Sequence record: LR597658
Strand: one strand, 5' to 3'
From: Escherichia phage VpaE1_ev108
DNA length: 64,000 bases
Shown here: in pieces, positions 4,563 to 6,042 of the stretch
Layout of the letters: each line of letters begins with the position of its first letter
Numbering within the stretch: position 1 is the stretch's first letter
The notes under the pieces: generated by a model
Database searches by the model: none
What the model saw: the letters and a program-made list of their open reading frames with translations, nothing else
Told to the model about the DNA's origin: nothing
Position numbers and translations under genes: made by a program

Positions 4563-4640
4563 GGGAGATTGACGGTAATTGGTAAACCTATCTCGCTTAG
4601 AACGAGATGTTTGAGGGTTCGAATCCCTTGTCTCCTACCA
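4563..4640 (+). tRNA. tRNA with anticodon TAG (Leu-type) but short variable loop
   Basis: acceptor gggagat/gtctcct, anticodon stem tctcg/cgaga with loop cttagaa, 5-nt variable loop, T-arm gaggg-ttcgaat-ccctt, CCA encoded. Confidence 0.6.
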
Positions 4641-4647
4641 AATTAAT

Positions 4648-4723
4648 GCAGGTGTAGCAAAATGGTTATGCGGCTGACTCTTAATCAGTAAGACGATGGG
4701 TTCAATTCCCTCCACCTGTACCA
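4648..4723 (+). tRNA. tRNA-Lys (anticodon CTT)
   Basis: acceptor gcaggtg/cacctgt, anticodon loop ctcttaa, T-loop ttcaatt, CCA encoded; paralogous to tRNA-Lys(TTT). Confidence 0.75.
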
Positions 4724-4728
4724 AAAAT

Positions 4729-4804
4729 GGGGTCATAGTTTATATGGTTAAAATTCGAGTTTTGCAAACTTGGGAACTGAGTTCAATTCTCAGTGACTCC
4801 ACCA
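4729..4804 (+). tRNA. tRNA-Ala (anticodon TGC)
   Basis: acceptor ggggtca/tgactcc, anticodon stem cgagt/acttg with loop tttgcaa, T-arm ctgag-ttcaatt-ctcag, CCA encoded. Confidence 0.7.
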
Positions 4805-4810
4805 ATTAGT

Positions 4811-4885
4811 GCATCCATAGTTTAAACGGGAAAATTACAGTCTTCCAAACTGAGGTTGAGGGTTCGATTCCCTCTGGATGCTCCA
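4811..4885 (+). tRNA. tRNA-Gly (anticodon TCC)
   Basis: perfect acceptor gcatcca/tggatgc, anticodon loop cttccaa, T-arm gaggg-ttcgatt-ccctc, CCA encoded. Confidence 0.8.
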
Positions 4886-4892
4886 AATTAAT

Positions 4893-4968
4893 GCTTCTAT
4901 CGTATAATTGGCTATTACGGTTGCCTTGTAAGTAACTTATCAGGGTTCGAATCCTTGTGGGAGCACCA
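4893..4968 (+). tRNA. tRNA-Thr (anticodon TGT)
   Basis: acceptor gcttcta/tgggagc with wobbles, anticodon stem gttgc/gtaac with loop cttgtaa, T-arm caggg-ttcgaat-ccttg, CCA encoded. Confidence 0.7.
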
Positions 4969-5065
4969 ATTTAGAGGTCAAGTGAAAGACCGCTTTGAGT
5001 CAACTGAAGACCGTAACAAATTCCACGGAGTTGAGTTAGCGGCACAACTCCAGACCTCTTCTCAC

Positions 5066-5140
5066 ACTCGCTTAGTTTATATGGTAAAACACCACCCTTA
5101 CAAGATGAAGAAAAAGGTTCAAGTCCTTTAGTGAGTACCA
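5066..5140 (+). tRNA. tRNA-Val-like (anticodon TAC), weak anticodon stem
   Basis: acceptor actcgct/agtgagt, D-arm gttt-atatggta-aaac, loop cttacaa, T-arm aaagg-ttcaagt-ccttt, CCA encoded; anticodon stem pairs only 3 of 5. Confidence 0.5.
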
Positions 5141-5141
5141 T

Positions 5142-5219
5142 GTTCCAGTATCCCAATTGGCAGAGGATGCAAGCTCAAACCTTGTACTAGTGACGGTTCG
5201 AATCCGTCTTGGAACACCA
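5142..5219 (+). tRNA. tRNA with anticodon CAA (Leu-type), 6-nt variable loop
   Basis: acceptor gttccag/ttggaac, D-arm tcc/gga, anticodon stem gcaag/cttgt with loop ctcaaac, T-arm gacgg-ttcgaat-ccgtc, CCA encoded. Confidence 0.6.
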
Positions 5220-5224
5220 ATTTT

Positions 5225-5300
5225 GCAGGATTAGTTCAAATGGATAGAGCAACAGTCTACGAAGCTGTTAATAGGGGTTCGAATCCCTTATCCTGCGCCA
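5225..5300 (+). tRNA. tRNA-Arg (anticodon ACG)
   Basis: perfect acceptor gcaggat/atcctgc, D-arm gttc-aaatggata-gagc, anticodon loop ctacgaa, T-loop ttcgaat, CCA encoded. Confidence 0.8.
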
Positions 5301-5319
5301 ATTTAAAGAGGCTATTTAG

Positions 5320-5877
5320 ATGAGATATTTGAAGTATGCTTCATGGATTTTCTTAGCTTTGTTAGAACCATTTGCAGCAATCTTAGCAGTTATCTTAGCA
5401 CCTTTTGTAGTTCCATTCTACAGTGAGAAGAAAGGACACTTACCTTTCGGGTTCAGATGGATGGAGACATATGACAACCCAATTGATGGTGATGAAGGTC
5501 ACGTTAAAAGATGGGCTAATATTAGATGGATTGGTAAACTAGGTGTCTACATGCAAAGAGTCGGATGGCTCTGGAGAAACAAAGCTTATAACTTCTCTTA
5601 CCATGTGTTAGGAAGAGATGTAAAAGATGTTACTAAGTGGAAAGGTAATATCAACGTAAGTTCTAACCCTGAAGATAATCAGACAGGTTATCTCCTAATG
5701 TGGAACAGTAATGCTTGGGGATTATTCGCTTTTACCCCATCAATTAAAATCTTTGGTAAACAGTTTTACTGGAGAATTTATATTGGGTGGAAGCTAAAAA
5801 GTGTTGTCCCAGAAGAAAGAGCATTCTCAAGGGAAAGAGTTATGTTGGCATTCTTTATTCATCCACTAAGAAAGTAA
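5320..5877 (+). CDS. hypothetical membrane protein embedded in tRNA array
   Basis: 185-aa ORF with RBS; hydrophobic N-terminus (WIFLALLEPFAAILAVILAPFVV); Trp/Tyr-rich. Confidence 0.7.
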   Translation: MRYLKYASWIFLALLEPFAAILAVILAPFVVPFYSEKKGHLPFGFRWMETYDNPIDGDEGHVKRWANIRWIGKLGVYMQRVGWLWRNKAYNFSYHVLGRDVKDVTKWKGNINVSSNPEDNQTGYLLMWNSNAWGLFAFTPSIKIFGKQFYWRIYIGWKLKSVVPEERAFSRERVMLAFFIHPLRK

Positions 5878-5885
5878 AGATTTAA

Positions 5886-5961
5886 AGGGGATTAGTTTAC
5901 AAGGTTAAAACCTCGGTCTTTGAAATCGAAGAAGTTGGTTCAATTCCAACATCCCCCGCCA
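5886..5961 (+). tRNA. tRNA-Gln (anticodon TTG)
   Basis: D-arm gttt-acaaggtta-aaac, anticodon stem tcggt/atcga with loop ctttgaa, T-arm gttgg-ttcaatt-ccaac, CCA encoded; 1-72 mismatch. Confidence 0.65.
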
Positions 5962-5963
5962 AT

Positions 5964-6042
5964 GCTCCATTACTCCAATTGGCAGAGAGGCCAGACTTAA
6001 AATCTGTGTTATGTATCGGTTCGAATCCGATATGGAGTACCA
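5964..6042 (+). tRNA. tRNA with anticodon TAA (Leu-type), 7-nt variable loop
   Basis: acceptor gctccat/atggagt, anticodon stem ccaga/tctgt with loop cttaaaa, T-arm atcgg-ttcgaat-ccgat, CCA encoded. Confidence 0.6.

Follow-up and report, generated by a model that had tools for sequence, protein, structure and literature searches.

Locus and fold of three short tRNA-Leu genes

The window analysed here, a stretch of 64,000 nucleotides (nt) of Escherichia phage VpaE1_ev108 (sequence record LR597658), comes from a Felixounavirus, i.e. a FelixO1-like myovirus of E. coli and Salmonella; its closest match is VpaE1_ev78 (99.6%). It carries an array of 26 transfer RNA (tRNA) genes, among them three tRNA-Leu genes with the anticodons UAG, CAA and UAA (Table 1). 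In textbooks, and in a 2019 NAR paper (Fan et al. 2019), bacterial tRNA-Leu counts as a class II tRNA with a long extra arm. The three phage genes, in contrast, have short variable loops. The gene order of the array is common to Ounavirinae relatives, and three tRNA-Leu are already listed in GenBank records. The genes as such are thus known and it is their structural peculiarity that is at issue.

All three genes were called by ARAGORN and by the Rfam tRNA model RF00005. They exceed its gathering score of 29 bits, with scores among the lowest of the array. The ARAGORN calls are identical in coordinates and Leu anticodons to those of a preceding sequence-only reading of the same DNA, which had also described variable loops of 5-7 nt and no long arm. 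The ARAGORN drawings and a parse of the sequences bear this out, as the loops are UGUUU (4608-4612, 5 nt) in Leu(UAG), ACUAGU (5186-5191, 6 nt) in Leu(CAA) and GUUAUGU (6008-6014, 7 nt) in Leu(UAA), and none of them forms a helix. The lengths of 76-78 nt given by that reading have to be corrected to 78, 78 and 79 nt with CCA, or 75, 75 and 76 nt without it. Its description of the D arms as standard does not hold either. Leu(CAA) has a D stem of only three base pairs (bp), namely U10-A25, C11-G24 and C12-G23, with C13/A22 unpaired, and Leu(UAA) is analogous. Together with an enlarged D loop (AAUUGGCAGA in both genes), this is a class-II-type D arm. The D arm of Leu(UAG) is irregular, with one added D-loop nucleotide (D loop AAUUGGUAAA) and a C11/C24 mismatch. 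All three genes share the T loop UUCGAAU, and Leu(UAA) has a C27/U43 mismatch in addition.

None of the three genes fits the definition of a class II tRNA (a variable arm of more than 10 nt that forms a stem-loop), while all fit that of a type I tRNA-Leu, which combines a Leu anticodon and a variable loop of about 4-7 nt with an otherwise complete cloverleaf. A hidden long arm or another anticodon loop found no support from ARAGORN, Rfam or RNAalifold. Suppressor tRNAs were ruled out, as no stop codon is read by these anticodons: UAG pairs with CUA, CAA with UUG and UAA with UUA, all of them Leu codons. The tRNA-Tyr and the two tRNA-Ser of the same array have kept long arms of 15-21 nt; thus, the phage has not dropped class II architecture in general.

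Table 1. Features of the window discussed in the text
Feature	Position	Strand	Properties	Source
471-aa protein, directly upstream of the array	682-2097	+	DUF2828 + DUF7788	PHROG 850 'RNA-binding protein'
tRNA array	2263-7237	+	26 genes including three Leu	ARAGORN, Rfam
tRNA-Glu(UUC)	2347-2424		5' acceptor strand GUUCCAG	
tRNA-Met(CAU)	2516-2592		U1/C72 mismatch, U73, T at position 37	
tRNA-Tyr	2823-2910	+	long arm, 88 nt	ARAGORN, Rfam
tRNA-Ser(UGA)	4218-4307	+	long arm, 90 nt	ARAGORN, Rfam
Extended hairpin	4468-4567		about 100 nt	
tRNA-Leu(UAG)	4563-4640	+	78 nt with encoded CCA; anticodon 4598-4600	ARAGORN, Rfam (44.5 bits)
tRNA-Leu(CAA)	5142-5219	+	78 nt with CCA; anticodon 5176-5178	ARAGORN, Rfam (43.6 bits)
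DUF7338 protein, between tRNA genes	5320-5877	+	185 aa, hydrophobic N-terminus, function unassigned	
tRNA-Leu(UAA)	5964-6042	+	79 nt with CCA; anticodon 5998-6000	ARAGORN, Rfam (47.5 bits)
DUF7217 protein, between tRNA genes	6329-7063	+	244 aa, function unassigned	
tRNA-Ser(GCU)	7065-7157	+	long arm, 93 nt; U73	ARAGORN, Rfam
aa, amino acids.

Two further features of the short genes were noted in the acceptor stem and the anticodon loop. A G1-U72 wobble closes the acceptor stem of the UAG and UAA species, as it does in E. coli leuZ. In the phage tRNAs sampled below, this pair occurs in 26/47 short and 11/47 long tRNA-Leu (p = 0.003) and in 67/668 other tRNAs. The anticodon loop of Leu(UAG), CUUAGAA (4596-4602), has A37, as opposed to G37 (m1G37, made by TrmD) that is typical for tRNA-Leu reading CUN codons. 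Within the sampled CUN-reading tRNA-Leu, short ones mostly have A37 (16/21) and long ones mostly G37 (19/27).

Conservation and covariation

The three genes are 95-100% identical across more than 250 phage records found by BLAST, and Leu(UAA) is 100% identical in 215 of such records. Single-sequence minimum free energy folding was uninformative, with z-scores between -1.4 and -1.6 (not significant) and a cloverleaf for the UAG species only; therefore, comparative analysis was used. For this, 45 distinct short tRNA-Leu from the window, GenBank phages and IMG/VR contigs were aligned. In the cloverleaf into which RNAalifold folded the alignment, the D stem has 3 bp and the variable loop is short. 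Cloverleaf pairing was observed in 98.3% of the alignment cells compared to 37-48% with slid partners. Changes on both sides were found for 18 of the 20 pairs, and the observed covariation was reached by none of 500 shuffles. The three genes are genuine tRNA genes and not chance matches.

Leucine identity elements

According to a review of tRNA identity, the determinants of E. coli tRNA-Leu are A73, U8-A14, A15-U48, G18G19 and A20a. Anticodon and long arm are not determinants for the E. coli leucyl-tRNA synthetase (LeuRS), and an arm-less minimal tRNA-Leu is still active. A73, U8, A14, A15, G18G19, A20a and a U as last base of the variable loop are present in all three phage genes. Leu(CAA) and Leu(UAA) show A73, A14A15 and U48 next to their 3-bp D stem, the latter together with G1-U72. 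In Leu(UAG), which combines A73 with G1-U72, G2-C71 and A37, the U8-A14/A15-U48 set is offset by the one inserted D-loop nucleotide. The D loop of the phage tRNA-Leu, AAUUGG(C/U)A(G/A)A, is nearly identical to AAU(U/C)GGUAGA in E. coli leuV/W/X/Z. The D and T loops of all three genes can form the elbow pairs G18-U55, G19-C56 and U54-A58.

The same nucleotides are conserved beyond the window. Among the 45 distinct short tRNA-Leu, U8, A14, G19 and A73 are invariant, and A15, G18, A20a and U48 reach a conservation of 90% or more. A combined Leu signature (A73, A14A15, U48 and an 8-nt 3' side of the D arm) was found in 39/49 short and 42/47 long tRNA-Leu, but in only 40/668 other phage tRNAs. The identity sets of the other anticodon-independent tRNAs, Ala and Ser, are incomplete, given that position 3:70 is G-C, U-A and U-A (no G3-U70) and that both the long arm and G73 are missing. 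The Ser-type pair G2-C71 occurs in Leu(UAG) only.

The sequence-only reading had left it open whether the three genes are class I Leu tRNAs or carry a different identity, and had proposed to inspect identity elements and tRNAscan-SE isotype scores. With every E. coli tRNA-Leu determinant in place in all three genes and those for Ala and Ser missing, the former option is favoured. Published isotype scores for near-identical genes point the same way for two of them. In a study of the phage Sf14, whose array has its genes in the same order, tRNAscan-SE models scored Leu_CAA best as Leu (49.1, next 36.1) and Leu_TAA likewise (60.2, next 54.2), and in our alignment each of these differs by 1 nt from its counterpart in the window. 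There is no transferable score for the UAG gene.

Codon usage

Codon usage was counted over 16,527 codons in 53 open reading frames of the window (39.4% GC). TTA makes up 25.9% of the Leu codons, CTT 27.6%, CTA 11.2% and CTG 16.0%. In E. coli, CTG accounts for about half of the Leu codons and CTA for about 4%. No tRNA-Leu(CAG) was found among the ARAGORN calls in the window, the Leu anticodons being UAA, CAA and UAG. These match the Leu codons which are over-used in comparison to E. coli, and this is a classic codon-compensation pattern.

Distribution of short tRNA-Leu among phages

BLAST with the three genes gave ungapped matches to tRNA-Leu of T5-like, Acinetobacter, Erwinia, Aeromonas, Lactobacillus and Mycobacterium phages or prophages. 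On these loci and the window, ARAGORN called 17 tRNA-Leu, all between 74 and 79 nt long, and 15 tRNA-Ser or tRNA-Tyr, all between 83 and 94 nt. To reduce ascertainment bias, an IMG/VR sample of 120 loci with 643 tRNAs was drawn with an isotype-agnostic T-arm...CCA pattern. Viral tRNA-Leu were bimodal in length in this sample (n = 77), with 29 at 74-80 nt, three at 81-82 nt and 45 at 83 nt or more. All 47 tRNA-Ser measured at least 85 nt and all 17 tRNA-Tyr at least 83 nt. Lengths of up to 80 nt were thus observed for 29/77 viral tRNA-Leu (about 38%) as opposed to 0/64 tRNA-Ser and tRNA-Tyr (p = 1.3e-9). The same pattern applied to cellular sequences (226 tRNAs) gave eight tRNA-Leu, all of 84-89 nt. 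The difference in length between viral and cellular tRNA-Leu (p = 0.047) is weak on its own with only eight cellular tRNA-Leu and rests mainly on the textbook rule for bacteria. The short genes had been called unusual from sequence alone; this is true for cells, but among phages such tRNA-Leu are common.

Several IMG/VR contigs carry both short and long tRNA-Leu, and stub arms of 9-11 nt occur as well. The nearest neighbour is a long-arm tRNA for 14 of 49 short tRNA-Leu. Two D-arm lineages could be distinguished. The lineage UAGCCC/UAUCCC/UACUCC, which includes the CAA and UAA genes of the window, was found in short form only. The lineage UGACGG, which includes the UAG gene and is common to T5-like and Acinetobacter phage Leu(UAG), has short and long forms. 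A single origin of all short tRNA-Leu was rejected in view of the long-arm neighbours, the stub intermediates and the presence of two or more D-arm families; it is more likely that the arm was lost multiple times and that there is one short-only lineage besides. A recent capture from the host was rejected as well, given a core identity to E. coli tRNA-Leu of only 40-54%.

The Leu(UAG) slot of Ounavirinae arrays holds three different short genes, namely those of the window, of Alf5 (L131:3501-3578) and of Sf14 (L254:529-605). In Alf5, only the anticodon stem is swapped relative to the window, from UCUCG/CGAGA to CCAUC/GUUGG, and resembles the T5-like stem. The Sf14 gene is an unrelated member of the UAGCCC family. 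This variation resembles a turnover of cassettes or recombination with phages of the T5 type.

Labels of short Leu genes in the databases are inconsistent and comprise tRNA-Leu, tRNA-OTHER, tRNA-Undet and tRNA-Pseudo (NC_028825.1 H34, L004:6778-6854, L005:1046-1119, L133), which is a practical point for annotation pipelines. In LR597663.1, all tRNAs of the array are annotated on the strand opposite to that found by ARAGORN and Rfam.

Charging by the host LeuRS

Minimal and arm-deleted E. coli tRNA-Leu have reportedly been described by Larkin (2002) as LeuRS substrates. For A. aeolicus tRNA-Leu, it was found that the tRNA without its arm is still charged, mainly with lower affinity, while deletion of U48 abolishes charging (Yao 2008). 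Five nucleotides including N48 are the minimal functional loop (Fan et al. 2019, PMC6614811), and five is also the modal loop length of phage short tRNA-Leu (34/49). Charging of the three phage tRNA-Leu by the host LeuRS, as predicted from their sequences, is therefore well motivated. Overall, it appears probable that the window encodes functional type I tRNA-Leu of a FelixO1-like phage, which the LeuRS of the host charges.

Several points weigh against this conclusion. Fan et al. (2019) stated that E. coli LeuRS is restricted to type II tRNA-Leu as substrates and found that the Streptomyces type I tRNA-Leu(CAA) is not charged by it; according to them, the leucine-specific domain of the E. coli enzyme favours large variable loops. 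The Streptomyces substrate has the loop ACAGC, i.e. C48, and is thus without the E. coli determinant A15-U48. In a preprint from 2024, aminoacylation of phage tRNAs is regarded as an open question. The core identity between phage and E. coli tRNA-Leu is low (see above) and the D stem of the UAG species is irregular. The Sf14 Leu_TAG gene, which scored 67.4 as Leu, is by alignment a different short gene from the UAG gene of the window, so that its isotype score is not transferable.

Our own classifiers did not place Leu first, either. These were position-weight models for each isotype with masked anticodon, of which the Leu model was trained on long-arm tRNA-Leu only. A whole-body version reached a leave-one-out accuracy of 78%. 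A loops-only version had an overall accuracy of 56%, falsely called 1/580 non-Leu tRNAs Leu and recognised 27/47 short tRNA-Leu as Leu. For the UAG species, the whole-body scores were 27.8 for Lys and 27.5 for Leu and the loops-only scores 22.5 for Tyr and 21.5 for Leu. The CAA species was assigned to Tyr, Cys and then Leu by the whole-body version, while Lys, Tyr, Gln and Met led in the loops-only version with Leu outside the top four and no isotype assigned. For the UAA species, Glu came first and Leu second with the whole body, and Tyr (24.8) scored above Leu (24.0) with the loops.

Genes, fold, identity nucleotides, conservation, Leu-specific distribution and codon match are shown by the results above, and from these we infer transcription, charging by LeuRS and a reason for the loss of the arm. 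The Leu genes would be transcribed together with the 26-gene array and processed like other tRNAs. The E. coli LeuRS of the host would then leucylate them by reading A73 and the shape of elbow and core, i.e. U8-A14, the A15-U48 Levitt pair, G18G19 with the T loop, and A20a, and would ignore anticodon and long arm. The charged UAA and CAA species would decode UUA and UUG, and the UAG species CUA and other CUN codons. Decoding of CUG would be left to the abundant tRNA-Leu(CAG) of the host.

Loss of the arm in tRNA-Leu only

Deletion-prone phage genomes would have shed the arm repeatedly in tRNA-Leu, yet never in tRNA-Ser or tRNA-Tyr. Such a restriction is most simply explained by the rules of the synthetases, because LeuRS can do without the arm, while it is a key determinant for the seryl-tRNA synthetase (SerRS) and is needed by the bacterial tyrosyl-tRNA synthetase (TyrRS). 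The second pair of the acceptor stem fits into this picture. C2-G71 is an anti-determinant of E. coli tRNA-Leu against SerRS, and phage tRNA-Ser have G2-C71 in 54/57 cases. In tRNA-Leu, G2-C71 was found in 19/47 short and 8/47 long forms (p = 0.02, not corrected for relatedness). This higher frequency in the short forms is as expected if loss of the arm removes the risk of recognition by SerRS.

Another explanation, which is compatible with charging by LeuRS but appears doubtful, is counter-defence. It says that the arm was shed under selection, since host or competitor effectors use the long arm to pick class II tRNAs, and that an arm-less tRNA-Leu would keep Leu decoding going when the host tRNA-Leu is inactivated. 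Ser and Tyr would be barred from this escape, since their synthetases need the arm. There are effectors with a suitable preference. The DUF1814 nucleotidyltransferase toxin MenT3 needs a long variable loop, as deletion of the loop abolishes efficient modification, a long loop grafted on tRNA-Met makes it a substrate, and a change of 2 nt that reorients the arm turns tRNA-Leu-3 into a full substrate. MenT3 prefers Ser, however. The Abi toxin AbiEii seems to favour tRNAs of class II, but its targets are undefined. Human SLFN11 cuts type II tRNAs, and Schlafens of bacteria act as tRNases in phage defence; still, the one studied from bacteria cleaves other tRNAs, in the anticodon arm. No known defence effector inactivates bacterial tRNA-Leu via its arm. 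Phage tRNAs are known to evade anticodon nucleases via sequence changes, and the loss of the arm looks recurrent in view of stub intermediates and mixed arrays. On the other hand, many phages have kept long-arm tRNA-Leu, often beside short ones, and plain tolerance of LeuRS to the loss of the arm explains the specificity for Leu equally well.

In its broadest form, counter-defence would make the loss of the arm a widespread and recurrent phage adaptation and type I tRNA-Leu a defence-resistant decoding channel, unseen by class-II-selecting effectors such as nucleotidyltransferases of the AbiEii/MenT type and Schlafen-like or other tRNases; we regard this as a speculative and rather unlikely proposal. 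If it were true, the E. coli LeuRS of infected cells would routinely serve tRNA-Leu of two structural classes, against the published type-II-only statement.

Alternatives to a functional tRNA-Leu

The three genes might not encode working adaptors, but be decaying pseudogenes or non-translational RNAs, e.g. decoys for tRNA enzymes or spacers for processing of the array transcript. The tRNA regions of large phages, such as T5, are often dispensable in the laboratory. The Rfam scores of 43-47 bits, among the lowest of the array, the irregular D stem of the UAG species and the C27/U43 mismatch in the UAA species would be in line with decay. However, all four stems are upheld by compensatory substitutions in 45 distinct sequences. 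Conservation extends to the nucleotides of tertiary contacts and of identity, to U33 and A35 in the anticodon loop and to the encoded CCA. Near-identical genes are found in more than 250 genomes, and the Leu anticodons track the codon usage of the phage. A non-adaptor role is thus very improbable.

Least likely of all is a different identity (e.g. Lys, Tyr, Glu or Ser), by which a part of the Leu codons would be recoded or mistranslated in infected cells. Both classifiers, in which Lys, Tyr or Glu rank level with Leu or above it, the 5' acceptor strand that Leu(CAA) has in common with the phage tRNA-Glu, the Ser-type G2-C71 of Leu(UAG) and automated labels such as OTHER, Undet or Pseudo would speak for it. 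However, the anticodons are wrong for the lysyl-, tyrosyl- and glutamyl-tRNA synthetases, which are all anticodon readers (identity review and textbook), and SerRS needs the long arm and G73 and the alanyl-tRNA synthetase G3-U70, all of which are missing. The Leu determinants are complete, and the tRNAscan-SE models put Leu first for CAA and UAA. Misreading about 8% of all codons would also come at a high cost, and still hundreds of phages have kept the genes.

Comparison with known tRNA-Leu

Among the closest systems to the phage tRNA-Leu is that of the host. The E. coli tRNA-Leu genes leuW (UAG), leuX (CAA) and leuZ (UAA) have the same three anticodons as the phage, next to leuPQVT (CAG). 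Phage and host are alike in A73, U8-A14, A15-U48, G18G19, the 3-bp D stem with unpaired 13/22 and the canonical T loop, and the phage D loop AAUUGGNA(G/A)A matches that of E. coli. They differ in the variable region, where 5-7 unpaired nucleotides replace the 13-15 nt of the E. coli arm, in position 37 of the UAG species (A37 versus host G37) and in the second acceptor pair, which is G2-C71 (UAG) or U2-A71 (CAA) as opposed to an invariant C2-G71 in the host.

Type I tRNA-Leu have already been described from animal mitochondria and as Streptomyces tRNA-Leu(CAA); the likeness to the phage genes is one of architecture and not of shown homology. The Streptomyces coelicolor type I tRNA-Leu(CAA) has C48 and its LeuRS relies on C74 instead of A73 (PMC6614811), while the phage genes with U48 and A73 follow the rule set of E. 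coli. Animal mitochondrial tRNA-Leu such as human mt-tRNA-Leu(UUR) are also short in the variable loop, and their identity consists essentially of A73 and A14 and no long arm. However, these have floppy, reduced structures and are served by a dedicated mitochondrial LeuRS, whereas the phage tRNAs have canonical elbows of D and T loop and would depend for charging on an enzyme of the host whose normal substrates are class II. Engineered arm-less tRNA-Leu are chargeable by bacterial LeuRS if A73, U48 and the tertiary contacts between D and T loop are intact. Those were laboratory constructs with reduced affinity, while the phage genes are natural and conserved.

In mycobacteria, an HNH-endonuclease-associated tRNA cluster contains a tRNA-Leu(TAG) that 'has a short variable loop', in contrast to the long one of the chromosomal isoacceptor (Behra et al. 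2019, PMC6582537). This remark of one sentence concerns one host genus and made no connection with phages generally, with LeuRS rules or with the long arms kept by Ser and Tyr. It was the only remark on short-arm Leu in clustered or mobile tRNA genes found in the searchable literature. No mention of short-arm tRNA-Leu was found in the Sf14 array study, the eLife paper on anticodon loops or the PARIS, retron and Schlafen papers, and Fan et al. (2019) do not mention phages. The prevalence of type I tRNA-Leu in phages and their specificity for Leu therefore appear to be under-reported in the searchable literature.

The array of the Mycobacterium prophage prophiGD54-2 (L003, 8070 bases) has two short Leu genes of 76 nt together with transfer-messenger RNA (tmRNA), an RF-1-like release factor and an RtcB-like RNA ligase, a fuller toolkit for translation and tRNA repair than that of the window. 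The chromosomal type I tRNA-Leu of Streptomyces and mycobacteria may be of phage origin.

Our results suggest that classical coliphages (FelixO1-like and T5-like) and many others would bring type I tRNA-Leu into cells whose sole LeuRS normally sees class II. This would be a mild contradiction of the published generalisation for E. coli LeuRS, although the likeliest explanation is an orderly one. Natural arm-less tRNA-Leu offer the chance to ask whether they are good LeuRS substrates, and loss of the arm in Leu only would be a natural experiment that confirms the recognition rules of the synthetases. The arm as a possible handle for anti-phage toxins that target tRNAs becomes testable as well. 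Finally, compact natural Leu tRNAs may be useful as scaffolds in tRNA engineering.

Other features of the array

A permissive Rfam scan of the gaps in the array gave nothing above threshold. The extended hairpin directly upstream of tRNA-Leu(UAG), which it abuts, had a sub-threshold match to a miRNA-precursor model (32.7 vs 52 bits) and may be a processing or transcription signal. From its place beside the array, the 471-aa protein may have a function connected with tRNA or RNA; its sequence gave no match in the PDB. The DUF7338 and DUF7217 proteins within the array are conserved.

Some of the other tRNAs have features of their own. The 5' acceptor strand of tRNA-Glu(UUC) is identical to that of tRNA-Leu(CAA). 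The 3' acceptor strands of the two genes are one base apart, with G7-C66 in one and G7-U66 in the other, which hints at duplication or gene conversion within the array. The discriminator base of tRNA-Ser(GCU) is U73, compared to G73 in E. coli tRNA-Ser. In one tRNA-Met(CAU), which may act as initiator, elongator or Ile2-like tRNA, the T at position 37 gives an anticodon loop CUCAUUA, next to the acceptor features listed in Table 1.

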